DNA of 56,111 nt, the filler included, from Jimgerdemannia flammicorona (lineage: Eukaryota), in the NCBI GenBank assembly GCA_003990765.1. It is 3 parts of 3 records of this genome, joined end to end, with 100 filler letters (N's around TTAATTAATTAA, not from the genome) between each part and the next. Parts side by side here need not be neighbours in the genome. Positions count along the whole stretch, not along the records: positions 1 to 18,642 come from RBNJ01002152.1; 2 more parts are not named here. One strand, written 5' to 3'. The position numbers were made by a program, and so were the translations under genes. The notes beneath the pieces are model-generated. The model had not been told where the DNA came from. It did no database searches and worked only from the letters and a program-made list of their open reading frames with translations. Below, piece by piece: positions 9,906 to 54,935 of the stretch (positions within the stretch are counted from its first letter, which is position 1; each line of letters begins with the position of its first letter).

Positions 9906-12354
9906 TGTGACATATACAATTGACAATGGAGTACCAGTGACTGCTAAGATCAGACGACATAATGGCATGACAATCAAACAGACAGTCTGACCCATTAGGT
10001 GATCATCCCAAAGAAGACAAGATGATCTGAGCCAAAATGAAGACCACGTTATTTAAGGAACCATACTCCGCCTCAGGGATCGGCACCAAAGAACCAAGTA
10101 CTCACTATACAATGCCTCCCACTCGCTGAACCAACCAGACCTCCTGCCACTCTACCCCTCTGCCTGGCCCAAAGACCCTGATATTTGAAGCTATCAAGAA
10201 GGCCATTTGGCGCCCAGATACTTCCGAATACTTAAACTTCTACACTGAGGACCTTGGACACTTTATCAACTACCAGTATATAATGACCCAACAGCTCAAA
10301 GACACTACCGAATGAATGACCCTCTGGCATGACTATGAAATCGGACACCGCCTTCGTAATGAGACTCAAGAAGACAACCGGGAAGGCCTCATTACCAAAT
10401 TGATAACCACTAGCCGGCTATGTAATCAAGAGAGCCCTCCATGTCCACCAAATCTTCCGCCATATTCCCTGGGCCATAGCACACTTGCAAGGAGTAATGA
10501 CTGGTAGCCTTTCCTGCCTTTCAACTAAAGATGCTGACTAGATAGAATCTGAAGTAGCCAACTCTACTGTCAGCAACTGCGTCGCTGTAGGAAGTCAACA
10601 AACTAAACCTACTCAACCAGGTTTCCACACCACCCCACTCCAAGACAACCATCAAGGTCACCTAATGAGCCTTATGGAGATGTTTGAAGGACCACCCATT
10701 ACTATAGAAGCACCCATTGGAGCTACCCCTACCACCCACTACCCTGTCAACCACAATTCACATCTCATCATTTGGGAACCGAATCAAGAAGAAGCCCAAG
10801 AGGTCCCTGTCTTTAAGGAGGAAGCCCAAGAACTCCAAGACCCTGCCCCTGAAGAAACCCCCTCTGACACTGAAACTAACGAGCCTTCAGAAGAAGAAGA
10901 GGAGCAACAGAGAGTCTACTAGTCCTCTGTCTGCATTCAAGCTGTTCAAGGGTTGGAGAATGTTGTTGAAGATGACTGGCCACTTTTCTACCCCCTCACC
11001 TCTTGGCCAGTGCTTCCCCCTTTTGAGGAGAGGTATGATGAAGAAGAAATCTTGACCCAGCAAGATTTGCCTGCCATGGACGAAGGGTACTATTTCCTCT
11101 AGAACTACCACCTGTCAGCCGCGAGAATTGTACAGCCTTCATGTCAGCAAGTCCGAATCCAGCATTGCTACCCAGCACAACCGTTTCCAGCATCACTATC
11201 CAGTGCCACCATTTTCAGCATTTTGTCAGCAAGTCCGAATCCAGCATTACCACCCACAATATCCATATCTAGCACTAGCACTCATCTTATCCCTATTCGG
11301 CGCAAACAATTGTCACACCCGTTTTCAGCATTGCTATCCCCTACAACCCAATCTGTAGTAAACAATAGCCTGCACCTCGCATCGTGCAAGCCAATAGCAT
11401 AGTGAAGTTCACCACAATGTAGTATACCTTAGCTATGCCCATAGCTAGCAAACTTGTATAAATAACCCATATTCTTAGAGTGAATAAACCTCAGTCAACT
11501 GGTTTTGAGAAATAACCACTGCCTCCAAGAGACCGGATAAATTCTGAGAACAAGATAACAACCTAGAGCAACGGATTGCTCGGAAGTTTGAGTTAAAGAA
11601 TTTTCTCTTGCCATGGAAAGAAAATGTTACCCGACCGCTGCCATTCGAGACCCAAGACCTAGCCAAGGATTAAAGAACCCAAGGAACCCAAGTTACCTAG
11701 CTAAGGATTCAAGACCCAGAAACCCAAGGATACCCAGCCCAAAGGATACTAGACTGCCAAGGATTCAAGACACGACCACCGCGCATTCGGACCTCCGCGC
11801 ATTCAGACCGCCATTCGACTGCCGCCATTCGAGACCACTATTCGAGATTCAAGACCCGGAAAACCAAGGAACCCAAGGACACCCAGCCAAACAAGACCGC
11901 AGCCTAAGACCCACCGAGGTACTCGAACGACCGCCAAGGACCCCCGTAAACCCGCCCTCAAGTTAACAAGTTAGACAGATGAGCGAGCTATCAACCTCCG
12001 TTTTCCCGACCTACTGCGCCACGAACCGTTTAAAGTCAAGACTGTCACTGCATAAATTCAAGTTTGCCACTAGGAAACTTGGCCAGCATAATCGCCGCCC
12101 TTATCTACTAAACAATTGAGCCACCATTACCGTTGAACAACCGAACGACCTCATCATCAAACAATTGAGCCATTGACATCCTGAGCCATCGTCAAACGAT
12201 CTCCCGCTATTATTATCGCACGTTTCGAACAACCCATCATGTGACCATCGACCCATAACCATCATGAATGCATTCAGTTATACATCACGTACTTCACCAA
12301 GTGGCACACATTGAGCCGTGCAGTCGAAGTTCAATATACATAACTAATGCCACA
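9906..12354 (+). repeat. 5' LTR of family A (~2.45 kb)
   Basis: Imperfect inverted termini TGTGACAT (9906)/ATGCCACA (12347-12354), followed 3 nt later by the PBS. TATAAATA at ~11457. No second LTR in the contig to confirm the boundary. Confidence 0.75.
10037..11102 (+). pseudogene. Accessory ORF inside the family A LTR (unknown function)
   Basis: About 340 codons with few point stops and one frameshift (~10410): ...LIFEAIKKAIW...WHDYEIGHRL...RALHVHQIFRHIPWAIAHLQGV...acidic...EDDWPLFYPLT. Confidence 0.7.
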
Positions 12355-12374: not shown

Positions 12375-13259
12375 AAGTTTTTTCAAAAGACTTGACCATT
12401 TGGCTTAAGAACCCAGTGATCTACAGTGGAGAACTTAGCAGGACCAAGTCAGCAACCAAACCAGGGGCAGCAACAGCTCTCCTCAGCAGAAAAGAAAGCC
12501 CACACCCTTGTCAGAACAGTAGCCAGGACCCTACTCAATACCAGTAGCCAGAAAACCGAATTAGAAGAAAGAAGTGACCCAGATTATGGTTTGACTTCAA
12601 GAGAAAGGAGACAACTCAGAGGGCAACCAGAACTGCCCCTTCAGATCCAAGACTTAGGCTAAGAAGAAGAAGAAAAGGATATCTCTGAGGAGTATCAGAC
12701 TCTTATCCATAGGAAGAACTCAGACAGAAGTGACTACATAACTACTGTTGTTAATTGAGTCACTCCACTAGACCGGGTATACTTTGAAACATTAGAAGAA
12801 GAAGAGGACTACCATCCATATCAACCAGAGCAAGATGACAATTAGGGATCAGACCATCAAAGGAATGAATTCAACCTATACTATTATCCAGACAGTGACA
12901 CTGACCCACAGCAGCAACCAGATGAACAAGACCTCACTACTTTACAATAGCAAGGGGCAGACGAACTCACTATCAGTTATATCAGTCCACTCCCACCATC
13001 AGTTGCCCAAACTTCAGTACCCTGGTCGCTCACACCTCGCCACTATCACCAATCAATCAGAAGATCTCCACCACTATCCAGGACTTCAACCCCAGCATTA
13101 ATTAGAAGAGCCAGATTACTCTCACCCTCACCAAGACACCACCCTCTGCCAGCACCACTAGTTCATCAAGTACAACCACCACCACCTTTCCCATCACCCC
13201 AAGGATCTGCTAGATCCCCTACCCCTGAACAATACTCAGATAGTGAAGACGAGTCAGAC

Positions 13260-14330
13260 ATGAGCTACCTCCAGAAGTTCCATGGTGCAGACAATGAAGA
13301 TATCAAGGAATTCTTTGGAGAAATTGAAGTTCAAGCAGCCGCCAAACAATGGGATACTGCAAGAAAACTCAGAATTGTGGAGTCACTCCTGAGAGGACTG
13401 GCCCTACAGAGGTATAATCAAGCCAAGTAAGCTGGAGGAGGAATCTATATAGAGGAACTGAATGATGGCCTTCAACCTGATAGGAACCATATAGCAAGGT
13501 ACATGATTCACAAAGCCTGGCTCCATGCCCAGTTCAATGGATTCGAGTGCCAACAAGAAGCACAGGAGGCTTTGACCTATATGAGCCAAGCTGCCAATGA
13601 AACTCCCAAGAGTTTCTACCATCAGATTCAAGCTCAAATGATCAAGGCAAACCTTCAACCAGCAGTCCAACTGGCCCTAGCCTCAACTACCTTCCTCAAT
13701 GGCTTATACCCAGAACTTTGAAGGCAAGTTATCAGAATGGGATATCGAAACATTGAACAGCAAGTTGCTGGAGCACAAGGATGTTGGGAAGCAGATTATA
13801 GACCAGTACAACAAGTACAAGGCTATCCTGAGCCAATCTGAGCCGAAACCTCAAGGACCCGAGGGACAACTATGGAGCAAGAGAATGCCTTCCTCAGAGC
13901 CCAGATAGCCAACTATGAGAACAGACCAGCACCCACAAATCCGACTCCATTCAGGCAACCACAGCAGCAGCCACCATCAAGAGTTCAAGAAGACCCCATG
14001 ACAACGCTCACCAAGCAAATGAAGGACCTGGCCATCACAGTTGCTCAGCTGAACAACTAAGGTAGAAGACAACAAGACTACCGTCATGATAACAGACCAG
14101 ACTACTGGCAACAAGACAACAGAGGTCCTGCTCCAGCACTACCAGCTGCAACTACAGCCTCATCAGCGACTGGTTCCTATGGTCCCACCTGCTTCAGCTG
14201 TGGAAATCAAGGCCACATCCAGAGGAATTGTCCAAGGAACCAATCCACCCAGTCCAATGACAGAAATGTCAACCTCTTTCAGGTAGATGAAGAGACTCAG
14301 GAGATGGAAGAAGAAGCAGCCTAACTCCAT
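13260..14330 (+). pseudogene. gag: Family A gag (capsid plus CCHC knuckle)
   Basis: MSYLQKFHGADNEDIKEFF...FLNGLYPEL*...CFSCGNQGHIQRNC (14189-14230). An acidic/Pro-rich leader precedes it from ~12400. Confidence 0.85.
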
Positions 14331-14899
14331 GGTCAAGAAGATGACACCTACCCGTACTTCGAGGCCTTTCCATCCAAGGTGACATGGGAAGCTGCCCCAG
14401 CAGAGACCAGAGGATGAGGAAGACCACGAAGGAATCCCCCACCTCAACTACCAGTAACAATATCCACAGGCAAGCATCCGTGATATGGCCATTCTTCTTC
14501 AGATACTCCACAAGAACAGGAGAAGCAAGTGAGAAGAGATACCCCTGAATCAGAAGCCGGACCATCTAGGACAACCCCCAGCTCTACTCTGCCAGACCTT
14601 GAAGAAGATGAGCATATGAGCATAGAATCTTCAGCTGACAAAATGCCTATCAGGAATGAGAGACTACACCCCAAGGGACCAAGACACCGAAGAAGCAGCA
14701 AGCCCCATGCAGCAGCCTCACTTTGGAAACATATCCGCCTACAGAATGCTGGCCTTACAGTTGAGCAAGTCCTCAAGAATATACCAGAGGTCAGGTGAAA
14801 AATCCTGAAAGAAGTCAAGGAAGATACCAAGAGACTTCCAGTCTAAGGACCACACACTCAAGAACCTAGCACTATCCACACAGTCCATGAGGGCCAGCG

Positions 14900-17800
14900 A
14901 CATGAACATCAATCTACAAGACTCGCTGATGGAAAAGTGCATGGTGAAAATGCCAGAATTCTCGTCAATACTGGAGCAGTAGTATGCATCATCACCCAAA
15001 GGATGTTGGAGCGAATCGGATGGGGAATAGATGAAGGAACCAAAGCAAGAGTTATCATGGCCGACAGATCAGCTTCCACACCCCTTGGACTTGTCAGAGA
15101 TATCCCCATTCAAGTTGGAAAGGCCCACCTCAATGTACCCAAAGCCATTGTGACCCCCGTGACCTCCTATGATCTGATCCTAGGAACTGACTGGTTAAGC
15201 CGAGTTGGAGCCAATGTAGATATCAAGAAACAACTCCTGGTCTTCTCCACTCATGGACAGAAGCACAAGATACCCATTGACTCGAAAGGATTATCAAAAA
15301 AGATGAATCAAGCCTCAGAAACAGAATGGCAAGGACATGGCGACACCCCCACTATTACTGAGGAAGAAAGCGAGGCCAATTTCCTGCAAGAACTAGGAAG
15401 TGACTTTGATGCCCCAAGGGACCAAGAAAGCGAACAAGAAGACTCTTTCATTGGAGTTATTGGTGTCGAAGGCCTGGAAGAAAGCATTGATAGAGCCATT
15501 AATGCAAGGGCAGCACTCGAGTTTGCAGGACCTTCTGCTCAACCACCACCACCACTGGTAGAAAATCAGATCATGCGAGCCTTTTGTTGAGGCATATGCG
15601 AACACTTCATCAGCTTCCACTCACCAAGAGATGATTGCAGCAATTGCCGAATCCTGGATCTCAAGAAGGTTCCAATGCTAGAAATTGATGACAAGGACGA
15701 ATTGAAGCAAGCACCACCCCACAGTTGAGTACAACCTCCAACCCCGAAGACCTTCAAGAAGACCTATAAGGAAGGACAGAAGATCCTCGCCCGCCAAACA
15801 TTTGAGTCCCTTACCATCGAAGGAGAAAGCAATAGCTCTTACACTATCACCCAGGCTCTCCAGATCACACAGCCCACCTATGACAAGTATCGGAAGAGAT
15901 TTCCTACCAGTAGGGAGGTCAAACAGTGAAATGAAGACTTTGTCAAGAAGGGACATTGTGATTGTGGAAAAACCTTTACTTGCTACTGGTGCGAACATCG
16001 AGATGTTCACCTTAGCAAAGATGTCTACAAGAGCCGAGTCAAGAGAAAGGATCCCACTCTGCAAGAACCTCGAATTCGCTGGGCCTGTCAGAAGTGCAAA
16101 GAAATCAACCATGAAGGAGACTGCAAGTTCAAGAGCAAGACCTCTATCTGGGACCTACCATTGGAAGTTCTTGCCATCATTTGCTGGTACTGCCACCCTC
16201 ATCAAGGAAAAGAAGGTATAAATCTTGCCTTCATCCTTATGGAAGCTCTGGACCCTCTAGGAAAGACTGGATTCAATTATACAAGAAACTCAAAGACTGG
16301 AGCTCACTGGCCTTTCTTCAAACCGGAGCGCATGGACTTCTCACCTACAATGGCAACAGCTGAAGCACCATTTCTCAAAGCTCAACCAGTCATCCAGGTC
16401 AAGCTGCTTTCACCCTGGGCACAGCCACCTATTACACAAACAGAAGGATCAGTTGGTTATGACCTCTGCCTCCCCTACCAAGCAAGAATCTGACCCAGAA
16501 GTACCAGGACTTTTGACCTACAGATTGCACTCGCTATACCACCTGGGCATTATGGACAATTGGTCTCAAGATCCTCATGGGCAACCAAAGGAGTCACAGT
16601 AGAAGGAGGAGTCATCAATCAGGACTACCGAGGTCCCTTGAAGGCCATTATCTGCAATTCCAGCAGAACTAGCCAATTCTTCAGCCCTATGGAAGCCATC
16701 TGCCAAATCCTGTTTATCAAGACATCACAGCTGGCCATTCAAGAGGTAGACCAACTAGAAAATACCAACAGAGGACAAGGAGACTTTGGAAGCACCAATA
16801 GAAATCTACAGACACCACCTATCGAGGTTCATTTGGCAACAGTTGCTCAATTCCGACAAATGAGACCCCACATCTGCCGCCCAATCTGAGCAAGAGAAGA
16901 CATCCTCCTGCAGCCCTATCAGCAAAAAGGCCTAGATGTGCACCTACTAGTAGAAGCAAACAACTTGATATTTGCACCATCACTGGAGCTTCAAAAAGAA
17001 CACCACATCCTCCTGGCTGAAGAACGAATTCATGACCAGATGTCACCAATTCACATCCCTATCAGAAACTTGGGCTTTGAAGTGATAACTATCCCCAAGG
17101 GAACAACACTGGGATATTTCGAACCACTGATAGACACCTACAAGGAAGAAGTCTTCGAATTCTTGGGAAATGGCAAGCCCTCTCCAGTGAGACTGACGGT
17201 ACCAGGAAGGAAGACTCAGCAAATTCCGCAATCAAAGCCGTCGACATCGAGACAACTCTAACCAAGGATCAGCAACAACGGATACAGGAGTTGATAGAGG
17301 AGTACAAAGATATATTTACTACCATATATGATAACTTTCCACCATATCAATATGGAGAACACCCTATACATACCGGAGATGTAAGACCAATCTGACAACG
17401 ACCCTACTGAACACCACATCATCTGATTGAATTTGAACAATAACATATAGATGAAATGCTACGAAATGGAGTCATCAGACCATCATCAAGCCCCTGGGCT
17501 TCACCAGCAATCATAGTACCAAAGAAAGGAGGATGGAGATTATTCGTGGATTTCAGAAAACTCAACAAAGTCACCACAGAAGATGCCTACCCACTGCCAA
17601 GGATTGATGACCTCATCAATGCCCTCGGAAAAGCCAAATACATGACCACTACTGACCAGTTCCAAGGATTCCAAGTAATACCTATTGCCAAGGAAGATAT
17701 CTGCAAGACGGTCTTCATCACCAGACGAGGACAGTACGAATACCTATGAATGCCCTTTGGACTCTGCAATGCACCCGCCTCATTCCAACAAATGATGAAC

Positions 17801-18642
17801 CATATCTACCAGGACCTCATTGGAAGAAATGTACTGGTGTACATAGATGATATAATCATCTACTCTGAAACATTCAAGCAGCATTTGCAAGACCTCCGCG
17901 AAGTATTCAATACCATTCGAAACTCAGGACTCAGACTCAATGCCAAGAAGTGCTTCTTCGGAAAACATCAAGTCGAATATCTGGGATATATTGTCTCAGC
18001 TCAAGGAACACATGTCGACCCCCGCAAGGTGGAGAAAGTCAAGAACTACCCAACCCCGACCTCAGCAAAGGAGACCCTATCCTTCCTTATGCTGGCATCC
18101 TACTATCGGCGATTCATCCCAAGGTTTTCAGATAAGGCAGCACCTCTCCGAGATATCTCCAAGAAGGACCAACCATTCTACTGGAAAGAAGAACAACAAA
18201 AGTCATTCGACCTACTCAAGAAGGCCCTTACTGAAGCCCCTGTCCTGGTGCGACCAGACTTTGGCAAACTATTCATCCTGGCAACTGATGCCTCAGCCTT
18301 AGAACTTGGATCAATTCTGTCTCAGCAAGATGACCAGAAGAGAGAGCATATTATCAAATATGCTAGCAAGGCCATGAATGAAATGCAAGCGAACTATGGA
18401 GCCACTAAGTTGGAATGCCTAGCAGTAGTTTGGGCTGTGGACCACTTCCGACACTATCTCTTGGGAAAGAGATTCACCCTCATCACTGACCATCAAGCTC
18501 TACAATGGTTGTTCCACAAGCTGGAGCCCTCAGGAATCTTCGCTAGATAGATCATGTCTCTGCAAGAATATCAGTTCACTATTGTCTACAAGAAAGGTGC
18601 TAAGAATTCCAATGTCGATACCCTGTCACGAATCCCACGAAA
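14900..18642 (+). pseudogene. pol: Family A pol: PR - ZnF - Cys-rich/F-box-like - dUTPase - RT - RNase H
   Basis: LVNTGA (probably D>N by G>A) protease; GYDL/SRSS/GGVINQDYRG/RGQGDFGST dUTPase (16395-16800); SPWASP, DFRKLN, MPFGL and YIDD for RT; TDAS, ECLAVVW and TDHQAL for RNase H. Confidence 0.95.
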
Positions 18643-18742
18643 NNNNNNNNNNNNNNNNNNNNNNNNNNNNNNNNNNNNNNNNNNNNTTAATTAATTAANN
18701 NNNNNNNNNNNNNNNNNNNNNNNNNNNNNNNNNNNNNNNNNN
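18643..18742. other. Artificial contig join (N44-TTAATTAATTAA-N44)
   Basis: Six-frame stop linker at 18687-18698 inside an N-run. Confidence 0.97.
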
Positions 18743-31594: not shown

Positions 31595-33654
31595 TGTAAG
31601 CACACAACCTCTAAGTCACTGAAATTACATGTCACCCTCTGAACAAGCCACTGAAATTACACACAACCTCTGAATAAATCTGGAAATCATCTGCTTGATC
31701 ATGAAGCTAAGTCAAACCAAAGTCACAGCATACAAAGCTAAGTCAATATGAAGTCACAGAACACAAGATTCACATAAATGGAATCTTACCAATCAGGACC
31801 AAATACATATATACCAAGCACCAAGATACATCGAAACAGAGAACCAAAACAAATAACAACTATAACTTCTAACACACAAATATGACCACCGAGATCTACA
31901 ACCATATCCACACTGACATTTGGAATACCATTGTCAACTGAGTCACACCTCCTCTACCCCTCATGAATATCCATAGCCTAGCACCCCTTTACTTCATGGA
32001 AGCCCGATGGAATACCCTAAACATACTTAATGAGGCCTACCAGATTGGACAAATCTCAAGCTACTACCAGATCGGCCACCTCCTAGAAGATATGGTTGAA
32101 CATCATCACGATACAGACATTATCCAGATGTCTCAACACCAGAAGCTCATCGCTCACAAACACCGAGAACTCTTCTATGAGTACAGTACCTTTATTCCCC
32201 AACTCCAAGTTACTACCAGCGAAATGGTTGCTACCCTGTCCTATAGCCAAATCAATGACATGATATAAGAAATCAACCACAAGTACCTCGAGTATGTTGA
32301 AACTACAGACAGAACCTTTCTGCACCCCAATGACCACATCCTGCAAATGTCCCAAGTCAGATACGCTATGAAGGATATTTACGATATAATCTGGTTCAAT
32401 GAAGATGAAGTAGAAGACAATAATCCCTTCAACATTGACATGACCCCAAGCCAAGGATCCCTGCCAACACTAATTATACCACCAACCTTGCCAATGAACT
32501 TACAACAGTTCATAACCACATATGAGACCTATTGGAACAATGACCACTAGTATGAATACCAACCCGCGTTCACCTCCAATTATCTCAACTACAATGAAGA
32601 GACCGGAGAATACAACCTATATCTCCAGACAACCCTCAAGATTGAACAAACCACTCCACTACCTGAGTATGAGTGATATGAACCACAGTTACCAGCTTAC
32701 TACAATCCCATGACTCATAGTGCTGTAACCTACAAAAGGTATGCAGACAGCGAATCTGATGAAAGCGAAGATGATGCACCTCTCCTCTACCCACTAACAC
32801 CTTATCCAGCATATGAGACAGATGATGCTATCTTGTAGAACAGTGATGAAGTCCCTATCTCAGCCAATAAGGAGAAGTAATCCACAAACTACTCTTCCTG
32901 GATGACTACTTCATCAGAGATGATATCATCAATGGTGATGTCATCGAAGACTACCCAGACAGTGTCTAAACCTATAAATAGCTTAGCAGTCATAGTATAG
33001 TTAGATTAGCCTTATACAATATGACTGTGAACTGACTCAGCAGTCAGACAATCTCTTGATATGTCAGATCACTCTTATATTACATGACTGTATTCTGACT
33101 CAGCAAGACACTTAGTGCTACATCCATATTCAGCATAGTCTAGATAGCCCCTCACTAGTATAAATACCCTCTCCCCTAGACCTCAGAATCTTGACTTGAA
33201 AGACTTAAACAATCCAAATACAACTCCTGAGCACTTCCCCACAACATTCCTTTATACAACTACTCCTAGTATAGCAATATCATGAATAGTAAATAAACCT
33301 ATTTAATAATCCACAAACCACTCTTAAGTAAATCCACTCCCCATTAGGTCCCACTCTAACTCTGTTATGAAATTTCCTAATTGGGTATTGTCTGCAGCGA
33401 TATACCAATTCAACTAAGCTGGTCTTAGTTTCTTGAACTTCCTGAAATACAGAAAATCCTAAACATCTAGAACTAGTCTGAAAAAGGACTTTGGTTGAGA
33501 CGTTAACCCAAACTTGAAATCAATAAGTATAGAGGATGTACTCCATATAAAATTAATCTTGACCATAAGAAAACAGTCTCCTAGAATATCCAGAACTTCC
33601 AGAAAACTCTTCCAGAACTACGTAATAGTTACCCTAAAAAGTAACCCTCTTACA
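31595..33654 (+). repeat. 5' LTR of family B (~2.06 kb)
   Basis: Inverted termini TGTAAG/CTTACA. Both termini and the 3' ~730 bp recur at 53271-54756 with different flanks. Confidence 0.8.
31882..32880 (+). pseudogene. Accessory ORF inside the family B LTR (unknown function)
   Basis: A single frame of 333 codons with five point stops and no frameshift: MTTEIYNHIHTDIWNTIV...SSYYQIGHLL...AHKHRELFYEYSTFIPQLQ...EDDAPLLYPLT. Confidence 0.75.
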
Positions 33655-33657
33655 ACT

Positions 33658-33669
33658 TGGTAGTAGTGG
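33658..33669 (+). promoter_or_regulatory. Primer binding site, probably tRNA-iMet
   Basis: TGGTAGTAGTGG here and TGATAGCAGCAG at 54760 give a consensus TGGTAGCAGCGG, 3 nt after the LTR CA. Confidence 0.65.
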
Positions 33670-36577
33670 TTTACAATCCAATTCTGCTTCAAGACACTTC
33701 CTCACCCTGCTACAAACCCCTCTGCAAATTCCTACAAGTTAGTATAAAGTCCAACCTCTAAACTGAAATTTATCCTGAACTATCTGACAATCTGAAGAGA
33801 ATTGAACCTGACATACAAGGACAATTTGACCTCCACACCTATAACAAGTAGGACAAACTTCATTCAAAAAAAGAAGTACTCTGATTAAACCAACAAATAG
33901 GTGAAATCCTATTTACCAAACTCCTTGCACTACACTCAGCAAGTCAAGATGAAGAAGGTCTTATTGAAGTTTTCTTTACTCTTCTCAACAAGAGTTTTGT
34001 CAGCTCTATAAATCTGAGTGACTTAGGACAACTAGCAGCAGTCTTTCTAGCCTTAGTCCCTCATGAAGCCCAAGCCTCTATAGCCAAGTGGCCCAACTCT
34101 ACCAACTTTCACCGCACCAGGACCAAGACTGCATTATACTACCGATTCCAGAATAGTAAGGCCCACCATATTCTTAAAGAAGAAGCAAGAGAAACCCTTC
34201 ATCAACTATCTGACCCCGAACCTGAAGCAGGCCCTGCTACAGTCCCACCTGAATCTGAAACTAATACCGAACCTGAACTTGACTTTGAATTAAGTCCATC
34301 GGAAATCAGATATATAACTGATTCTATCTACTTTGACACTGAGCAAACCCAATTATACAGGGACCAAACCAAAGAAGAGGAGGAGTATTTCAGTGAATTC
34401 GATCCTGGATATACTACTGAAGGAGAAGTACCTCCATCAGGACAGAATACACCTACACAGTAACAAATAGTTATCTATTAAGCCCTCACTCCAGACCCAC
34501 AACTACTACTCCAGCAACTTACACAGATCCAAAGAACCCCATCACACTCTGCACCAGTATCTCAAGTAGTACCAGTAACACCACTACCAGCAGTCCAACC
34601 ACCTCCAGTAAACAATATAGTGAACCAATAGATTCTAGACCTCACAGCCCAGGTAGCCATAATGGCAGCAACCATTACTGCCTTAGCTGAACAGACCTGA
34701 CCTACCAAAAATCTGAGTCTACCTACCTTCAATGGTACTGCACAAGAAGTCCAAAGCTTCATTAGTATAGTTGATACCAACTTTGAAGCCAATTAATGGA
34801 CCAATGAGTGAGTTGCTGACCACATTCTAACAAATAATCAAGACTATACTCTGAAACAACTCTTTGCTACCACTACAGCCTATGTCTGCTGAGTTGTTAC
34901 ATTCTTCTGAGGACCTGCTGAAGAATAGTGGTAAACCCTTCCTGAAAAACCCCTCACATAAGATACCCGACCTACAGTAGTTGCTTAGAATGCAGCAAAC
35001 AATACTCTAGGATATGGAGTCCATCCTGCAGCCCCTGGACTCAAATAACTCATAATTGCTCAATACTACAGTGAAACCATAATTGCTGAATCTCGAGTAA
35101 AACTCTGTAACCTCAAATTTAATATACATAGCAAAGAAGAATTTGAAACCTTCTGTACAAAACTTGAGTCACTCCTGAACACTGTTGGCCTAGGATACAT
35201 TGCCAATGAAGAAGCACAAAATAGTACAAGAGCAGACTATTTATTCAATGCACTGCCTGAATGGCTTACTAGAAAAATCTGAGAACAAGGCCACCCAGTT
35301 GATTGTGATCACCAACAATGGTATCTAGCAAGAATCAAGACTATGGTCAAGCAAATCCTAATAGCTGGACCAATTCTGCCCCAAAGATAATTCAACAATA
35401 AGGAAAAGACTTAGACTAAAAAAGAAGAACCCAAGCATGAAGCATCTCGAGCTCCCTCTACATCTACCTCTTGGACACCCAGAAATCATGAACCCACCCA
35501 GCCAAGTACCTTCAAGAAACTTACTGAAGGCGAAAGGAATGAACTTCAAAGAAGCGGAGCATGCTTCTATTGCCGAAAGACAGGACATATGGCCAGTGCC
35601 TGTCCTAACTGAAAACCCTGAACAGCAACATGAGCAACTGTTACCACTCTGCACCACCTTAACAACCTGACCACCAGAACACTAGACTTTGTCAAGTTAA
35701 GACAAACTGCCAAGGCTCCAACTAAAGGAAGTCAAAAAGCAGCTGGATATGACCTGTATGCAGCCAAAGAAGCTACAGTTTCCAACTGAGAAGTCAAGTA
35801 AGTCTACACAGGAATCAGTATCCAAATTCCTGAAGGATATATTGGAAGAATATACTGTTGCAGCAGCCTAGCATTGAAAGGACTCTCAGTAGAAGGAGGA
35901 GTCATTGATGAAGATTACACAGGCGAAATTATTATCCTCATCTGAAACCACAGTTGAACACTCTTCAAGATCCCTATTGATTTCTGTATTGCCCAGATTC
36001 TATTTGAAAAAATTGAATCAACTCTGACAGTCAAAGAAGTCTCTGAACTACTACCTACCATCTGAGGATCCAAAGGATTTGGCTCATCAAATAAGGCCCC
36101 AGCCCAACCTACTATGAGCAAAGAAGAATAATTCTACAAGAAGATCGAAGATGGATATGTACCAAGTGGCTGATGCCCTCATGGCATTGGAATGTACTCT
36201 TTCCAAATAATTGATGATTGCTTCTCTTGTATCAATGAACTGGTACAAAGAAGAACCAATAGAAGGAAAGCCCCTATAACCGAAATCACCACTATTGGAT
36301 CAGACAAACTGCTTACACTTAAAGCTTTTGTCAACTGAGCACCTGTCAAGATTATGATAGACAGTGGTGCCTCAGATAACTTCATCAATAAAGAGACAGC
36401 CAACAGACTCAAGGTCTTCACCTCTCCAGTACAATAAACTCAAGCAGTTGCTATAGCTGATGGAACCTCACATATTATTAGCAAAGAAGTCTGCAATCTA
36501 CCCTTCGAATTGACAACCACCAAGTACATGTTATCCTCCAAATCATATTACTTCCTGATAATGAAATCATCCTTGAC

Positions 36578-37378: not shown

Positions 37379-37478
37379 NNNNNNNNNNNNNNNNNNNNNN
37401 NNNNNNNNNNNNNNNNNNNNNNTTAATTAATTAANNNNNNNNNNNNNNNNNNNNNNNNNNNNNNNNNNNNNNNNNNNN
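37379..37478. other. Artificial contig join (N44-TTAATTAATTAA-N44)
   Basis: Linker at 37423-37434 inside an N-run. Confidence 0.97.

Positions 37479-37597: not shown

Positions 37598-40049
<2,452 letters not shown>

Positions 40050-43238: not shown

Positions 43239-43283
<45 letters not shown>
42071..43283 (+). mobile_element. Poly(A)-tailed retroposed repeat (~1.17 kb), copy 1
   Basis: Aligns end to end with 54939-56111. A-tail at 43243-43283 and a degenerate 15-bp TSD, gtaggtatatttaca (42056) / gtagatatacttaaa (43284). Confidence 0.8.
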
Positions 43284-43286
<3 letters not shown>

Positions 43287-43722
43287 GATATACTTAAATC
43301 TATCAAAACAGCTAACTTATCATTAATAGTAATATAGATTACCTTAAGTATACTCACTTTTACTATTATTTTTTAAGTGAAGAATATTGTGGAGACTGTT
43401 TATCAATAGAAAGATAAACTAATTAAATAGCTTACAGATCCATACTACAATATAACTAATTGATATATTTTAGTAGAAAAAAATGTTAAATTGTACCAAT
43501 TTCTCAAATTCTTTATATTATTTTTAAATTATAGTACTTGTATAAAGAATATATTAATCATCAAAATAATATAGATCAATTTGTTGTTGTATATTCAGAT
43601 ACTGATACAGATAGATAAAGAATTATATAAAGTATTAAAAAGATGATAGATAAATTAGAAGAATATAACAGTTATAATAAGTGAGTATAATTGAGTGAGA
43701 ATTAAATAAATATATAATATAT

Positions 43723-44193
43723 TATAATATAGTGAATACTTAATCTTAGAAGTACATTAGATTTCTGTATCTTGAAAACTTGATCTCCTTTGACTCTACA
43801 GAGTCCTCAGAATATAGAAGTGGGTAAGTTTGAAGTATATCTGTCCATAGACTTACTAGTTTCTTTACTTTTCTTTTACTTTGAACTATTTTGATCTGAG
43901 GTTTATTTACTCTAAGATATTGAGTTATTTATACAAGTTTGCTAGCTATAAGATGGCTAAATTATGACTAAGATATAAGTCACTTTTTATAAGTGTTAAT
44001 CCTTGACATCTGTTAAATCTTTAACATCTGTGAATTCTTAATATTTGTGAAAAGTTTAACATTTGTAAAAACTTAACATTTGTGAAATGACTACTATTTA
44101 TAAGGCTATACTATATTAGAAATTGGGTTCAGATACTGTGATTAAGTATCTAATTCCCCTGATTCTTATTCCTAATTCAGATCAACTATTATA
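43723..44193 (-). repeat. 3' LTR of family C (471 bp)
   Basis: Colinear with 50432-50901. Confidence 0.92.
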
Positions 44194-44234: not shown

Positions 44235-44678
44235 TTACTCAAACTCCCAGGCTTCTATAATTTGTATCTTCTTGTACTGTGTAATTTATATTATTACATT
44301 CTCCCAATAGTATCTCTTAATATATCTAAAATCTCTTGAAACTATTCCTCAGAAATGGGGTAGGGCAGCCTCATCCTCTTTGAACAACTTATTGACTTAT
44401 TTAGCAATTGTGATCTAAAAGTGAGAGAGCTGATACTCTCTGATCCAATCTTCTTTTCTCATTTCTAGCTATGAATTCAGTAGCTGTCCTAACTTAAAGT
44501 ATTCTTGAAACTCTGTCCAATTCTGATAGACCTTGAAGTATGAGATTTATGATAGATATATCTGTACTATACTTTGGATACTATCATAGAATTTCTCTAT
44601 CATAAATAGCTCAGTAGTATACTATTGTCTTTTTATGGCTCATTATATAGCACTGGTAATCTTGAGAGCTATGGTCAT
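44235..44678 (-). pseudogene. Extra ORF between integrase and PPT of family C (env position)
   Basis: A single frame with point stops only: MTIALKITSAI**AIKRQ...QEYFKLGQLLNS...IAK*VNKLFKEDEAALPHF*GIVSRDF. Confidence 0.65.
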
Positions 44679-47390
44679 GCTTTTTTGACTAGTCATAATA
44701 CTTCCTGAGTCAGTTTTGGTGAGTGGTAGTAGAGATGATTGTGCCTGAGAGTTTTTATAGCCAAAAGGTAGTCTCTTTTATTCTTGCACCAGGTAAGGTC
44801 TCTCCTACTTAGGCTCTAGTTTTTATGACCATAAAGCTTCTACCATATTCTGATATACTAGGACTTTGTTTCCTATCTTGATAATCTCTAGAAGCTTGTG
44901 AACTTTTTTTGCATTATTCTATTATAGTGTCTGTATCTTGGTTATGTAATCTTCAGCCTTTTTCCTGATTTGGTATAGTCTCCATATCTCTCTATCTATA
45001 TATTTCCATATAGTATCTCTATTGGATGATAGGGTTTCTTGAGAACTTTTTCTCTGAACAGTATTTCCTAAGAGATGAAATGGGTGCTTTGCAATTGAAT
45101 ATCCTAGAGAGTAAATAATACTATTAGCAAATAGTGATCCCAGTTTTCATAGTTATCACAGATCTTGGTAATAACATTTTTGAGAGTCTTGTTGGTCCTT
45201 TCTGTCTGTCTATTTTCTTAGAGATAGTATGCTATAATCTGAATATGCTGAATCTTGTACTTCTTGTAGAGAACCTTAAAGAACTGATTTATGAATTCTG
45301 TTTCTCTATCTATAGTTACTTATATTGAGGTCTTGAACTGACAGATAATCTCTCTGTAAAAGAAATCAGTAATTGACTATACATTGGCTTCCTTGAGGGG
45401 TCCTATCTCTATCCATTTTGTAGAAAGGTCTATGATGATGATGATATATTGGTTGCCAGTCAAAGTCAAAGGTAGAAGACCAATTACATCTATTGCAATG
45501 TGGGCAGATAGTATTAGTTCTATGTATACTGATCCTGGGGCTTGGTTTTGTTGGTCTTATTTCTGCTTCTGGCATTTGTTACAGATCTTGATAAATCATC
45601 TGATATCTGATATCTTCCTCCATTCCTGGCCACTATATTGTTTTTCTTACTTTATCATATGTGTTTGTTTCTTCTAGATGACCAAGTTTATATACTGATT
45701 TCATTGCTTAGTTCTTCTTGTGTTCTGGTATAACTAGTAGTTTTCCTTTCTTCAATATTTCTCTATTGGTTTCAAATTATTTCCATATTCTATTAATAAT
45801 CATTTGTATCTATTCTTTCAGATGTTGAGGCATCTTTTACTATCCTAGATAGGTAATTATTCCATAGTAAAGCTCCTTATTCATGATTGGTTTATTGGTT
45901 AGGGGTTCTTCAGGGTGTCTATAAGAGGATATCTGCATTAGCATTGGTTCTTTCTGGGTAGTGCATGATGGTTATATTATATGCTTGCAACTTCATGATC
46001 TATCTGACATAGATTCCTTTGGGTTGTCCAGTGGTCAGTAGTCAGATGAGGGCTGAGTGATCTGTCTGAATAGTGAAGTATCTTTCTGCAAGATAATAGT
46101 GGAACTTTTCTATAGCCTAGATGACTACTAGATATTACAACTTATAGGATTTATATTCTTTTTTAGCTCCTCAGGTTCCTTGACTTAGATATGTAATGAT
46201 ATACTCCACTTTGTCTTTCTTTTGAGCTAGAACTGCTCCTAGTCTTTGGGTACTTGTATTTGTCTGCAGAATAAATTCTTGAATTCAATTAAGTCTTCTG
46301 AGGATGGATGCCTGGGTCAGTCTGACCTTGAGTTCTTCAAATGCTTTCTGTTGCCTACCAGTATATTAGAACTTAGTATTCTTCTTATTGAGTTCATAGA
46401 TTGGGTCTGTGATGTTAGAAAATCCTCTGATGAATTGATAGTAGTATGAGGTAAGTCCCATGAAGACTTGAGCTTTAGTGACTGTAGTAGACCTTGGGTA
46501 TGCTCTTACTGCTTAAATCTTGAGAGAGTCTGTATATGTTCCATCTTAATTAATAATATGACTAAGATAAATAATCTCAATTTCTATAAATTTGTACTTC
46601 TTGGGCTTGATGTAAAGGCCATACTGTCTCAACTTTTCTATCATCTGCTGGATATACTATAGATATTCTTCAGCTATCTTGCTATAGATGATAACATCAT
46701 CCATGTAAACCATCATCTATCTACCTATATCATAGTAAAAGATTTTGTTCATCATTTACTAGAAGCTTGCAGGGACATTGCATATTCTGAATAGCATTCA
46801 CAGATAGATATAGGTTCTATCTGAAGTGATGAAGGCTGATTTCTCACTTGCTATTTCTGTGAGTCTGATTTGGTGGAATTCTGAGTATAAATCCAAGGTG
46901 CTGTAGTACTGTGCTTCATCTTCTAGAGTTATAAGAATATCATTGATGAGGGGCAGTGGTTAGCAATCCTTCTTGATGACTATGTTGAGCTTTCTGTAAT
47001 CAATATAGAGTCTTGGTGTGAATTCTCCAGGCTTACTTTCTTTTTTTGGAGCTAGTATAACCAGTGAAGACCAGGGGCTGCTGGCTTTCTTGATGATACT
47101 GGCTTCTTCTATCTGCTTGATTTCTTCTCTAAACTATTCTTGGTAGACTAGTAGGACAGGTCTTGTCTTCTGGTAAATTGATTTGGTATCTCCAGTATTT
47201 ATATCATAATAGTAGTATGAAGTCTTTTCTTTGATATTCTTGAAGTCTGTAGTAAGAATATCCTCAAATTCATAGAGTATTTTCTTAAGTTCTGTCTTGA
47301 GTGAGAATTTATCTCTAATAGTATAGCTGTACTTATTTATAGTTTTCTCCTTCTTATGCTATAGCTTGGTAATCTTTATACTGATGAATA

Positions 47391-47949
47391 TGGTGCCCCA
47401 TGCCTATAGTTATTTTTTCTTTTAAAAACTTTATTCCTGGATAATTGATATAATAATAATAAAAGAAAAATCATAATCTAATAGTAAACTTTCTTGAATT
47501 TACTTCTATAGAGAGTTTTTTATAATTATTCTCTTATATATATATTAAAATGGTCAAGTATAATATCTCATACCTATTTTTTAAAAACTTTATTCCTGAA
47601 TAATTAATATAATAATAATAAAAGAAAAATCATAATCTAATAATAAACTTTCTTAAATTTATTTCTATAGAGAGATTTTTTTATTATTCTCTCTTATATT
47701 TGTAATAATTAATTTTTTTATAAAAATATTGCTCAAATTTACTAAATTTGTGGCTTAAATTATATTATATAACTACAATTTCTATACCTATACTCAACTA
47801 TTTTAATATATGAGAGAGAATAATAATAAAAAAAACTCTCTATAGAAGTAAATTTAAGAAAGTTTGCTATTAGTTTATGATTTTTATTTTATTATTATTA
47901 TATTAATTATCTAGAAATAAGAAAAAATAACTATAGATATGGTGTACTA
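47391..47949. mobile_element. MITE (Tc1/mariner-type, TA TSD) inserted in family C pol
   Basis: TIRs TGGTGCCCCATGCCTATAGTTATTTTTTCT / AGAAAAAATAACTATAGATATGGTGTACTA, flanked by TA. Internal ~160-bp direct repeat plus one inverted copy. Confidence 0.8.
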
Positions 47950-50431
47950 TACTCTTCTTTCTGTTTTCTCTAACTTCTTGACTTCTATGATCCTTGGCTG
48001 AAAGACTGGAAAGATCAATATCTATACCAATTGATCCTTCTTCTTAATTAGAAATAGAATCATAGTATTGTAGTTCCTAGCAATAAGTAGTATTTCTCCA
48101 ATATAATCAGAATTGATGACTCCTTCTTTAATTGTGATTTCACTCTTAGCAAGGCTACTTCTTGTCTTGAGGATTCTGATATGATCTTTTGAAATAGTCA
48201 TCTCTAGGCTGGTTGCAAGTAGGGTGGTTGTCTGGGGTTTCAGTACAGTTTCTTCTACTGTGGCAATATCCATTCCAGCTGTATTTTCTAACTTATATTC
48301 TGATAAGAATGAATCTTCTGAATCTTGATCTTGATTTCTTCTTCATCATCACTGTCTTTAAGGAGAGCTAGTGGTTTATCATCCTTTTTCTCCTCTTCTT
48401 TCATTCTCTTTTCTTCTCTTGCCTATTTCTTAAGGGCTTTCTCTCTTCTTTAGTGGTAGATCTCCTTGATTTTGCCAGTGTACTGGTAATACTCATTAAT
48501 ATGCTCTATATAGTACATTCAGATACTATGGGGGCAGACTCCTTGTGGTGCATATCTTTCCATAATCTTCTTGCATCAGTTCTCTTCACTTATCCATCTA
48601 ATCTTCTTCTTTTTCTAGGTTATCACTATATAGACCTCCTCTTGCTCACTCTCTTCTTCCTCCATCTCAGACAGAACTCCTTTGTTGACATTGATCAGAA
48701 TTTACATCTTCTGTCTATAATAGATGATCTGTATCTTCTGAGTATTTAGATCAATTATTGCCTTGGCTTTGTGAAGCTATTGATTGCTAATAAGGATATC
48801 ATAGTTGGTTATATTGATCACAATTATATCTACTGGAATGGTTGCTCCTCCAAACTTGATAGGAATATCTCAGATCTTTTCCAGAGGTGTGACTCTTGTG
48901 CCATCTGCTATGACAAATACTAATTTGGTTGCTTCTTCAACTTCCCAACCTAGGCAGTCTGCTGCTTTCTTACTGAGGAGGCACTCTCTTGCTCCTATAT
49001 TGATAATAGCCTCAAACACTCTATTCTCAATTTGACAGATTGCATAGGCAGAGGTCTTGTGGTTGTCTTTGCTTTCTTTTTCTGAGTCTTCTTGAACATT
49101 GTTGGCCTCAGTTATCTTCCAACCTTGCTTCTTAGTTATCTCAGTAAGTTCATATCTCATTTTCTGTCTAAATGTGGGTATTTCTGCCAACTGGCCAAAG
49201 GTGACATTGACCTTTTGTTGACTGAGATCTTTGAAGATATCATACTTGAAGGTCTTGGTTTTGTGAAGCTTCTTCTTTTCTCCTTCACTAGCTAGAGTGG
49301 TTCTTTGGATAATATCTTGAATAGCCTATTCTAAACTTTCTGTAGTGGTCTCCATTTGCTTTTTCACAGAGTTTTTCTTGGGTCTCTCTGGTGGTCTGTA
49401 CAGGATAGACCTTCCATTTTTCTTCATCTGATTCTCCAATTTCTTCAAAGGTGATGATGTTAGCCTATTTCTTATTTTGAGTTATATTACTTGGCTGAGT
49501 CTTATGCTTGGTTTTGCTCATGTATTCATATGAGTAGTGGTCTTCTTCTCCACAGGTATAGCAGATATCTCTCTTCTTGTCTAAGGTAGTAGCAAATTTC
49601 TAAACTAGCCAGTAGTCTCTTTCTTTAATTTTTTTTATCACATCTCCTAGGTAGGCTGTCATTTTGGTGAACCTCTTAGCAAGTTCCTCCATGGGGTCAC
49701 TATTTCTCTGTTGTTTGGTAGCTCTTGATTGAGGTGTGTTTCGATTAATTACTATAGTAGAGATCATATTAGTTGCCTTGAGTACTTCAATTCTGACTCC
49801 AGTGACTCTCTCCATTATATAGTCTTGTAGGTATCTGACTATTTAGTATTACTGAGCATAGATGACCTTCTGTACCAGATCCAGGACTATTAGTAATGAG
49901 CAGATGGCCAGGACTATCTCTGGGTAAATTCCTTTTATAAAGGTTACTTTGGCTACTTGATCTTTAATGGTGGTAGTATAATATATAAGAATTATCTAAT
50001 ATCAGATTTTAGTGTAGAATGTGTTTGGATCCTCACTCATTTCTTGGTATGTTGTGTTGAACTGATCCTTCAGTATCTGCTTAATCTCATCTGTATAGTA
50101 TATAGCTCAGAACCACTGCTAGCATAGTATCATCATCATTTCCTACATGGGTTGCAGCTGTAAATACTGCTCTTACTAGTCCTCATAGACTGAAGAGTAT
50201 GAGAGTTACTTGCTGTCTTGCTATCAGACCTCTTATAATAGCATATTGCTCAAAATAATTAATGAAGATAATGATTAATTTATCTGAAGTATAACTATAG
50301 AATACTAGTAATCTCATATCCATCTTATCTAGATGTCTTATTTGTATAGTTGTTTGGATAGTGGTGGTTATTCATTATTCAGCTTAAAAGTGAGAGATTT
50401 ATCTTGAATTATCAGCCAATAGGCACCAAGT

Positions 50432-50901
50432 TGTAATGTAGCAGATACTTAACCTTAGAAGTATATTGGATTTCTGTATCTTGAAAACTTGATCTTCTTT
50501 GACTCTATAGAGTTCTCAGGATACAGGGGTGGATAAGTTCAAAGTGTATCTATCTACAGGCTTACTAGTTCTTTTACTTTTCTTTTGCTTTAAACTATTT
50601 TGATCTGAGATTTATTTACTCTAAGATACTGGGTTATTTATACAAGTTTGTTAGCTATAAGGCAGTTAAGTTATAACTAAGTTATGATCACTTTTTACAA
50701 GTATTAATCCTTGACATCTGTTAAATATTCAACATCTATGAATTCTTGACATTTGTAAAGAGTTTAACATCTGTGAAAACTTAACATTTGTGAAATGACT
50801 GCTATTTGTAAGGCTATACTATATTGGGAATTGGGTTCAGATACTACAATCAAGTGTCTAATTCTCCTAATTCTTATTCCTAATTCAAATCAACTATCAC
50901 A
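50432..50901 (-). repeat. 5' LTR of family C (470 bp)
   Basis: TGTAAT...ATCACA termini on the plus strand; PBS adjacent on the minus strand. Confidence 0.92.
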
Positions 50902-53270: not shown

Positions 53271-54935
53271 TGTAAGTGTACAACCTCCAAGTCACCAAAA
53301 TCACATATCATCCTCAGAACTAATTTGAAAACCACATGCGAGACTACAAAACAAGTTACTGAAGAGATCATCTGATTACATGAAATATGCTAGTAAGTAT
53401 GAGAACCTACCACCAAGATACAAGAATACTAGAAGAAGTACTATAACTATAAAACTGACTCTGAACTGCTATAACTAGTTTGGTGTACCATACTATTACA
53501 AAAAGAAACCAAAAGTACCAAAATCGAACCAAGATAAGAAGAACCCTATCTTATCCATCAAAAGGTTTACAAACTGTACTTATCAACTCAAGACTAGAAT
53601 ACACTACAACTATACAAGACCTCATTACTTAGTAGAAGCAAAATGCATTTGATCACTCTATCTGTATCACCTCCATTAGAGAGTGATAGATGCTTCATCT
53701 GAACTCAAGAAAGCTGACATCGTCAAAACCAATCTCAAGCCATCTATGTGACAGATATTACTACTAGAAATTGCCTTGAATTACAGAAAATATCATTTCT
53801 GAGAGATTCAAATTCCCAGCCATGACATTGGGAGCTCTTGCCCTAGACAAGGATGGCCAGTCCTCGCAAATGTACCAGAAGACCAAAAAAAAAGAGAACC
53901 AAGACCTGTTATCCTTATACAACTACTACCACCAAGGACAGTCTTAATCTTGCAAGAGATAGAAGTGATAACATCTTGAAAACTGATGATGTCAGAAGTC
54001 AGAAACTACTCAGACTTTACTAGCAATAATGTCATCAATAGTGATACATATCATCAAAGACTAACTAGACAGCACCTAAATCTATAAATAGCTTAGCAGC
54101 CATAGTATAGTTAGATTAGTCTTATATAACATGACTGTGAACTGACTCAGCAGTCAGACAATCTCTTGACATATCAGATCACACTTGTACTATGTGACTA
54201 CATTCCAACTCAGCAAGGCACTTAGTACTATATCCATATTTAGCATAGTCCAGATAGCCCCTCACTAGTATAAATATCCCCTCTCCCAGATCTCAGAATC
54301 TCAGACCTGAACAATTCAAATACAACTCTTAAGTATTTTCTACAATATCTCTTCATACAACTACTTCTAGTATAGCAATATCATGAATAGCAAATAAACC
54401 TATTTAATAACTCATAAACCACTCTTAAGTAAATCTGCTTCCTATTAGGTCCCACTCCTAACTCTGTCACGAAATTTCCTAATTGGGTATTGTCTGCAGC
54501 AATATACCAATTCAACTAAGCTGGTCTTAGTTTCTTGAACTTCCTGAAATATAGAAAATTCTGAATATCTAGAACTAGTCTGAAAAAGAACTTTGGTTGA
54601 GATGTCAACCTAATCTTGAAATCAATAAGCATAGAGAATGTACTCTATATGAAATTGATCTTGACTATAAGAAAATGGTCTTCCAGAATATCCAGAACTT
54701 CTAGAAAACCCTTCCAGAACTATGTAACAGTTATCCTAAAAAGCAACCCTCTTACAACTTGATAGCAGCAGTTTACAATCCAATTCTGCTTCAAGATACT
54801 TCCTTACTCAGCTATAAAACCCTTCTGCGAATTCCTACAAATTGGTGTAAAGCCCAACCTCTGAACTAGAATTTATCTTGAACCATCTGATAATCTGGAG
54901 AGAATTGAACCTGACATACAAGAACAATTTGACCC
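53271..54935 (+). mobile_element. Family B-type LTR (53271-54756, 1.49 kb) plus PBS and leader, interrupted by a retroposed repeat
   Basis: Start TGTAAGTGTACAACCTCC matches 31595. 54027-54933 is colinear with 32920-33831, while the middle of U3 differs. Confidence 0.85.

Follow-up and report, generated by a model that had tools for sequence, protein, structure and literature searches.

To our knowledge, almost none of the extra open reading frames (ORFs) of long terminal repeat (LTR) retrotransposons has a function, and few are common to several element families. Here we describe an ORF of this kind that is present in three broken copies among Ty3/Gypsy elements of Jimgerdemannia flammicorona, in a stretch of 56,111 nucleotides (nt) from assembly GCA_003990765.1 that consists of three parts joined end to end and is referred to below, at its full length, as the window. 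Comparable arrangements are known from retroviruses. In mouse mammary tumor virus (MMTV), the sag gene lies in the U3 region of the LTR and encodes a superantigen, a type II membrane glycoprotein. In foamy viruses, Tas (Bel1) is a transactivator with an internal promoter.

Among retroelements, the parts of the published accounts cited here offer several further parallels. An "add. ORF" of unknown function is drawn for fungal Gypsy elements (PMC2864245), diverse bdelloid retroelements have additional ORFs in common (PMC5408684), and Boty-like elements of Botrytis carry an antisense gene, brtn (PMC8365987). Fungal Ty3/Gypsy elements bearing a dUTPase are described from Postia placenta (PosPlaTy3), Phanerochaete and Tuber (Tmt1), and the variable placement of the dUTPase has already been published in the same account (PMC2864245).

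We interpret the three frames in the window as the inactivated remains of a genuine third ORF, an accessory gene that stands alone and belongs to one dUTPase-bearing clade of Ty3/Gypsy elements. To this reading in full, including the position, product and mechanism proposed below, we give a probability of roughly 0.45.

Three broken copies and their intact relatives

The copies are called c1, c2 and c3, and the elements with which they are associated E1, E2 and E3.

10112..11102, plus strand: c1, accessory-ORF pseudogene, long form, with one frameshift near 10415 and four internal stops
31882..32968, plus strand: c2, accessory-ORF pseudogene, long form, with five internal stops and one frameshift near 32856
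44235..44696, minus strand: c3, pseudogene, short form (helical domain only), with nine internal stops

An earlier note on this DNA had aligned the three frames by eye in three colinear blocks and proposed that they belong to one protein family. The quoted blocks and frames were found to be present, with corrections to the anatomy of all three copies. Homology to intact relatives placed the start of c1 at ATG 10112 (MPPTR) rather than at 10037, and block 3 of this copy lies in a different frame because of the frameshift near 10415. By tblastn, c2 was found to extend beyond 32880; its frame shifts near 32856, and its stop codon lies at 32966-32968. The start of c3 is ATG 44696, which aligns with residue 1 of the intact relative P0026, and c3 shares its frame with the integrase C terminus directly upstream.

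Each pseudo-ORF has intact relatives, of 121-342 amino acids (aa). The search with the frame-0 part of c1 yielded P0001 (325 aa), which is 72% identical to c1 and whose 90% cluster includes the likewise intact P0004 and P0008 (324 and 331 aa). In tblastn comparisons, residues 1-106 of P0001 matched 10112-10429 at 81% identity, and residues 69-314 matched 10329-11042 at 66%. The search with c2 yielded P0009 (247 aa, 58% identity), which by tblastn matched 32224-32856 at 57% and 32856-32966 at 54% identity. The search with c3 yielded P0024, P0025 and P0026 (107-139 aa, 54-68% identity). When P0001 was compared with 1.84 billion representatives by phmmer, there were 10 matches, nine of them small ORFs of the family; the tenth, P0018 (1810 aa), aligned to P0001 in its acidic part alone. 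The divergent matches P0010, P0011, P0012 and P0016 were 31-35% identical to P0001, and subfamilies at this distance keep open frames of 205-342 aa; P0017 was 46% identical over a short stretch. A start of the form MPPxR or MPALR is common to three subfamilies.

The recorded sources of the relatives are all JGI/IMG or ENA assemblies, and the contigs are short except that of P0006 (19.4 kb, ENA). Among metagenome contigs, P0011 matched only L001 (1535 nt, of the P0010/P0019 subfamily) and P0001 matched none, while neither of these two queries matched any viral contig. Sequencing runs contributed small shares only (0.05-0.16), mostly soil metagenome contigs, and none of the short metagenome pieces bridges integrase to ORF or ORF to LTR.

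Judged from their frames, all three copies in the window are dead. All 17 of the internal stops that could be aligned to a relative correspond to Q, R or W in its sequence, the stop types which the earlier note had predicted, and two of the copies are also frameshifted. The internal stops of c1 align with R, R, W and Q of P0001, and one of the 17 sites is K in P0026 and Q in P0024. Indices of repeat-induced point mutation (RIP) were mixed, with TpA/ApT at 0.97-0.99 in E2 and E3 and (CpA+TpG)/(ApC+GpT) at 1.22-1.27, and classical RIP is therefore not claimed.

Compared directly with one another, the copies give weak evidence of homology. In Smith-Waterman alignments, each set against 300 shuffles, c1-c2 scored 61 (shuffles 41.1 ± 5.9; 1/300 reaching the score), c2-c3 scored 48 (32.3 ± 6.0; 7/300) and c1-c3 scored 37 (29.6 ± 4.5; 24/300). 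BLASTP and tblastn among the copies produced a match limited to a PLxYPLT stretch of 11-15 residues (E value of 0.017-0.3).

Profile methods reached further. A hidden Markov model (HMM) of eight intact relatives (A1), run against 564 six-frame chunks of the window, gave c2 as its top non-self match (E value of 7e-4) over HMM positions 20-148, the whole N-terminal domain; c3 was not significant (E value of 3.8). With an HMM of 14 relatives (A2) the match to c2 was weaker (E value of 0.0067), and once c2 had been added to this model c3 rose to the top non-self match (E value of 0.08). An alignment of the intact c3 relatives (A3) was then compared with A1 by hhalign, giving a score of 34.1 over 79 colinear columns (P of 2e-4, probability of 47%) that was reached by none of 200 column shuffles (mean 12.9, standard deviation 2.5, maximum 23.9). 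The N-terminal domain of c2 scored 26.3 against A1 and 22.2 against A3, in each case with 0/100 shuffles reaching the score, and in a joint MAFFT alignment of 17 sequences all three blocks of the earlier note were in register. The shuffle control that the note had suggested for the three proteins thus came out weak for the pairs and positive for the profiles. On these alignments the homology of c1, c2 and c3 holds, visible by profiles only, and with the intact relatives it bears out the proposal of a single protein family.

Host elements and the position of the gene

Pfam scans of the frames, with stops read as X, identified three Ty3/Gypsy elements in the window, all with a dUTPase. Their parts are as follows; PR is protease, RT reverse transcriptase, PBS primer binding site and PPT polypurine tract.

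12900..18642, plus strand: E1 body, with gag including CCHC, PR, dUTPase, RT and RNase H; ends at the N run at 18643
11420..11498, plus strand: E1 LTR promoter core (GTATAAATAACCC ... AATAAACCTCAG), common to E3
9906..12078, plus strand: possible long 5' LTR of E1, with an inferred start at TGTGACA and an uncertain end; includes c1 and the core
33655..36550, plus strand: E2 body, with gag including CCHC, dUTPase and PR; truncated near 36550
31595..33654, plus strand: E2 5' LTR, 2.06 kb, with TGTAAG terminus, c2 cassette, promoter core and CTTACA; PBS TGGTAGTAGTGG at 33658
53271..54756, plus strand: second E2-family LTR, with terminus, core, PBS and leader as in E2 and a different 700-nt middle
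44697..50430, minus strand: E3 body, with PR, dUTPase, RT, RNase H and integrase; heavily degraded
43722..44193, minus strand: E3 3' LTR, with PPT AGAAGGAAG before it at 44203-44195
50431..50901, minus strand: E3 5' LTR (TGTGATAG ... ATTACA), then PBS TGGTGCC

The Pfam matches were zf-CCHC, gag-asp_proteas, dUTPase (6e-26), RVT_1 (3e-35) and RT_RNaseH_2 (4e-34) in E1; zf-CCHC, dUTPase (8e-31) and aspartyl protease families in E2; and RVP_2, dUTPase (5e-14), RVT_1 (2e-18), RT_RNaseH_2 (6e-21), Integrase_H2C2 and rve in E3. The dUTPase domains, 27-47% identical between elements, lie before PR in E2 (35712-36090) and after PR in E1 (16430-16800) and E3 (about 47950-48300). The two LTRs of E3 are 86.5% identical to each other. 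Between its dUTPase and RT, E3 also has a tandem duplication of about 120 nt (47420-47541 and 47579-47699, 92% identical).

The earlier note had described the hosts as divergent families differing in PBS, LTR sequence and pol domain order. The PBS sequences do differ, and the claim about domain order is true of E2 only. The picture of divergent families with different LTRs was not borne out, since all three elements carry a dUTPase and have an LTR promoter core and an ACTTGG context at the PBS in common. The E1 core is 84% identical over 81 nt to E3 43970-43891 (local score of 94, shuffle maximum of 28), and the E2 core shows, by eye, the same GTATAAATA...CTCAGA pattern. Because of these common features we regard the elements as one group rather than unrelated families. 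The RT/RNase H regions of E1 and E3 are only about 38-40% identical as proteins, and the two families must therefore be old. Common descent within one dUTPase-bearing clade best explains the sharing of the ORF, with an accessory gene that evolves faster than RT and no need for separate acquisitions in unrelated families.

At 11440-11494, within the promoter core, the summed contig depth was very high in run X4 (253.8 in its bin), and loose contig ends were seen on both sides in several runs, which suggests a short core common to many LTR families of soil organisms. No tRNA genes were found in the window.

Mapped on these elements, the gene occupies a 3'-terminal place, with integrase on one side and the LTR promoter core on the other. 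Both c1 and c2 are directly upstream of the common core. In E3 the order is integrase, ORF, AGAAGGAAG and LTR, with the ORF ending 32 nt before the PPT and LTR start; the E3 gene is thus internal and not LTR-borne. In L001 the stop codon of the ORF is followed directly by GGAGGGAGGA-T-TGTAAT, which is read as PPT and LTR start. An in-frame stop lies 17 codons upstream of the L001 ATG at 376, and the frame that is open at the 5' end of the contig stops at 152, leaving about 220 nt to the ATG. That the gene is stand-alone is most likely in view of the in-frame stop of L001, the conserved start and the copies that occur without pol. L001 also has a 28-nt direct repeat (GTCAGGCGGAAC...TCAGAACA.AAG) at 170-197 and 1481-1508, 1311 nt apart, which flanks the ORF and whose score was reached by 0/300 shuffles.

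The arrangement in E2 is different. About 50 nt from TGTAAG at 31595 recur at 53271, 750 nt upstream of the second copy of the core, and the 6 nt of TGTAAG (31595) return in inverted orientation as CTTACA at 33649-33654, immediately ahead of the PBS. The core, PBS and leader of E2 (32920-33831) are 86% identical to 54026-54934, and Pfam detected no pol remnant upstream of c1 or c2. From the recurring terminus, the inverted repeat and the absence of pol upstream, we read the E2 LTR as a 2.06-kb unit containing the whole c2 cassette; the window includes no 3' LTR of E2, and the U3 placement of c2 is judged from the 5' LTR. No ORF of the family was found by the HMMs or tblastn in the second E2-family LTR. 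For E1, a long LTR starting at 9906 is favored by a GC step from 0.30 to 0.48 at about 9900, by the lack of a pol remnant upstream and by contig data. Among the soil-metagenome contigs of run X1, summed depth rises from 21.3 in the last bin before 9902 to values of 84.6 to 239.8 over the six bins that follow, and position 9936 is covered by 10 of these contigs that end 28 nt from it (contig ends near 9908).

We propose, then, an internal gene followed by the PPT in the E3 and L001 lineages, and an LTR that starts ahead of the gene in the E2 lineage and perhaps also in E1. A cassette lying wholly in U3 would be duplicated in both LTRs. Independent expression of the gene, and LTR duplication in E1, are what we infer from this arrangement.

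Several candidate features around these boundaries were rejected. TGTCACA at 11311, considered as an E1 terminal inverted repeat, is matched 6 times in the window where 6.5 matches are expected, and carries no weight. A duplicated U3 upstream of the ORF was discarded, as 218/300 shuffles for E1 and 254/300 for E2 reached the score, and so was a likeness seen by eye between the upstream regions of L001 and E1 (158/300). An integrase remnant seen by eye upstream of the second E2-family LTR (about 53400) was unsupported by tblastn and Pfam.

The predicted product and competing explanations

AlphaFold2 modeling of the short form P0026, from a 17-row alignment, gave an all-helical structure of seven helices with a predicted local distance difference test (pLDDT) score of 84.5 and a predicted template modeling (pTM) score of 0.77. 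The product is accordingly modeled as a conserved helical domain of about 140 aa. Searches for known relatives of this domain were negative. Pfam returned no family for P0001 and nothing of note in the 14 members scanned; in particular, none of these 14 matched Chromo, and the AlphaFold2 model, being all-helical, does not suggest a chromodomain. A profile search of PDB sequences found nothing but an acidic stretch of pICln (E value of 0.09), and Foldseek of the P0026 model against PDB and BFVD found nothing at an E value of 0.001 or better. VIA-align against 48,161 chains gave no Z of at least 5 (best Z, 3.7), and the ESM Atlas, queried with P0011, had a best score of 0.88 and no usable lead. 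No transmembrane (TM) segment was detected, the maximum 19-residue Kyte-Doolittle mean being 0.39-1.07 in the eight members tested. This supports a soluble product and agrees with the earlier note, which had seen no TM segment and concluded that the protein was not a classical Env.

In the long forms, the domain is followed by a variable linker and then by a strongly acidic tail, with a DD-x-P-[LMW]-hydrophobic motif at its end. The last 100 residues contain 19-27 D+E versus 1-7 K+R. The acidic tail described by the earlier note was confirmed in that the tail and its P-L-hydrophobic motif form one column block in every full-length member and c2; the exact YPLT is restricted to the c1 and c2 subfamilies and is missing in P0009, the intact relative nearest to c2. 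The stretch reads FYPLTSW in c1 and its near relatives and LYPLTPY in c2, while other members have acidic runs followed by L-I/V-L-N-F, which by eye resembles a SUMO-interaction motif.

Next, we considered what such a protein might do. We tentatively hypothesize that it serves the element as a regulator or adaptor, similar to Tas, and hold this as a possibility rather than as a probable outcome. The suggestion is based on the 3' or U3 position of the gene, the helical domain, the TATA-like boxes and the acidic and hydrophobic character of the C-terminal motif. In this scheme LTR DNA or a host factor would be the target of the helical domain, the tail would serve to bring in host machinery, as foamy virus Tas does, and the gene would be expressed from a promoter of its own upstream of the ATG. 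In a more elaborate form, which we think quite unlikely, the gene would be a self-contained LTR gene, with a promoter at the U3 end, an mRNA of 1.2-1.5 kb running to the LTR poly(A) site, and a Tas-like factor that binds and activates the core. The factor would then be made from any LTR of the family, even a solo LTR, with positive-feedback transactivation as the outcome, and the moving LTR boundary, with the gene internal in E3 and L001 and LTR-borne in E2, would document the route by which a retroelement gene enters U3.

A number of observations weigh against the stand-alone gene with its proposed position, product and mechanism. The protein database is made of called ORFs only, so that the recovery of intact relatives is partly an ascertainment effect. 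The AlphaFold2 model of full-length P0001 was poor (mean pLDDT of 45) and was not used for fold search. The weak structural resemblance to DNA-binding proteins, a helix-turn-helix likeness to the DNA-binding domains of ParB, SopB, KorB and VirB (VIA-align Z of 2.8-3.7, residues 61-139), is at noise level and only a lead. The short form has no acidic tail, which therefore is not essential to every member, and the TATA-like boxes that precede the ATG by 60-75 nt were recognized only by eye. As regards position, the earlier note had taken both c1 and c2 to be LTR-borne; for c2 the recurring terminus and inverted repeat sustain this, and for c1 the status is ambiguous as far as can be read from the sequence. 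An alternative LTR start for E1, GCGAGAA-T-TGTACAG, lies near 11127, after the ORF, no terminal inverted repeat was found for E1, and neither E1 nor E2 shows similarity between the sequences on the two sides of the ORF.

The frame could also be a C-terminal extension of integrase or pol in the place of a chromodomain, released by protease or remaining fused and serving in integration tethering, with the database ORFs being gene-caller artefacts. The E3 copy favors this, as its ORF is in frame with integrase and the nearby stop lies only inside the integrase tail, with none before the ATG, a further point against a stand-alone gene; the position also matches that of integrase C-terminal targeting modules. 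The in-frame stop of L001 17 codons before the conserved ATG and the gap of about 220 nt after the upstream frame are hard to reconcile with an extension, however, as are the MPPxR/MPALR start of three subfamilies, the lack of a pol remnant upstream of c1 and c2, and the absence of a chromodomain in Pfam, and we judge it unlikely. If the gene is stand-alone, its role could still be another one, namely counter-defence as a suppressor of RNA silencing or DNA methylation, or an adaptor function in particle assembly or trafficking, the tail in the latter case serving not for activation but as a short linear motif, for example a late domain of the YPxL type or a motif for SUMO interaction. FYPLTSW and LYPLTPY look similar to YPxnL motifs, and the acidic runs with L-I/V-L-N-F in other members would fit the SUMO-interaction alternative, but YP is not conserved beyond two subfamilies and the short form has no tail at all. 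Such a role appears rather unlikely.

Passive carriage of a host-gene fragment with no function for the element is a very unlikely origin in our estimate. LTR elements do take up host sequences, and the dUTPase itself occupies varying places in pol here; in the part of the literature cited, its independent acquisition has been suggested for other fungal elements (PMC2864245). Yet among the 1.84 billion representatives phmmer found no longer cellular protein containing the domain, P0018 matching in its acidic part alone, and the domain has been kept across subfamilies that are about 15-35% identical, in the same place in elements whose RTs are about 40% identical. Finally, the three frames might be AT-shifted pseudo-frames that resemble one another by chance and belong to no common family. 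The failure of BLAST beyond an 11-residue stretch, the insignificance of c3 with the A1 HMM (E value of 3.8) and an hhalign probability of only 47% would be expected in that case. Against this, shuffles never reached the hhalign scores (0/200, 0/100 and 0/100), c2 and c3 were the top non-self matches in window-wide HMM scans, the colinear alignments span 79-128 columns, and all three frames occupy the same place relative to the LTR core. Chance is already largely refuted and hardly credible.

Other features of the window and comparison with known systems

A dense array of a 9-nt unit, with about 38 or more CAAGATGGG-like copies, occupies 1384-2420 and contains three overlapping minus-strand frames of 316-340 aa. 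In overall character the window resembles eukaryotic, fungus-like DNA. At 38074-40046, on the plus strand, lies a host gene with introns for a GCN5-type histone acetyltransferase with a bromodomain (Pfam 7.9e-09), for which the nearest Atlas cluster is "Histone acetyltransferase family" (0.93). A weak remnant of DDE_Tnp_4 (PIF/Harbinger type) is found in two frames at 29278-29832 on the plus strand (E value of 0.0019-0.0046), in the AT-rich block upstream of E2; AT-rich blocks in the window go down to 13-25% GC. Repeat B is present at 42073-43249 and 54941-56111 in copies that are 79% identical, and the right copy comes directly after the second E2-family LTR, PBS and leader, in the place of gag. 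At the right end it may represent a non-autonomous element using the E2-family LTR. The N runs at 18643-18742 and 37379-37478 are paired, with 12 bases between, and a G-codon run occurs in read-through after the first. E1 stops at the first N-run pair, and the end of E2 near 36550 comes about 830 nt ahead of the second; adjacency across the joins at the N runs may not be true.

No description of the present protein was found in the open-access literature that was searched for LTR-internal ORFs and for an ORF3 of fungal Gypsy elements. The additional ORFs are similar, in the parts of those accounts cited, in being an extra frame besides gag and pol that is common to several element families (PMC2864245, PMC5408684). 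The present family differs from them in having no Pfam match, in having its own ATG and in being LTR-internal in one lineage, a comparison made with the published fungal "add. ORF" by description only (PMC2864245). The variable placement of dUTPase in pol is likewise shared with the dUTPase-bearing fungal elements as there described, the order here being CCHC-dUTPase-PR in E2 and PR-dUTPase-RT in E1 and E3 (PMC2864245). With brtn, as presented in the cited part of its source, the present ORF has in common that it is an extra gene in a fungal Gypsy element, but brtn is antisense whereas the ORF in these elements is on the sense strand (PMC8365987).

The frames in the window thus belong to a real accessory-gene family that has no match in Pfam, PDB or the open-access literature searched, and the LTR-internal arrangement is its most unusual feature. 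The family is a clean case, with intact relatives, a confidently predicted helical domain of no known fold or family and a conserved short C-terminal motif. It provides a concrete protein with which to ask how dUTPase-bearing elements regulate themselves or handle host defence. Should the LTR drive expression of the gene, a solo LTR could itself code for a protein, which would change how repeats are annotated and masked in fungal genomes.

Of the retroviral systems, MMTV sag is the closest analogy in position. In the E2 lineage, as in MMTV, a complete frame of about 320 codons would lie in the U3 of a long LTR and hence in both LTRs. The products are unlike, in that the present protein has no TM segment, gave no match to Sag in the sequence and fold searches of Pfam, PDB and BFVD, and comes from a host that is not a vertebrate. 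Tas differs as well, there being no sequence or fold match in BFVD or PDB and a short form without the tail. Even so, Tas and the long forms of the present family appear alike in their length of about 300 aa, in being encoded at the 3' end beside or across U3, and in an acidic composition of the C-terminal region, and by analogy we suggest Tas as the closest working model for the gene.

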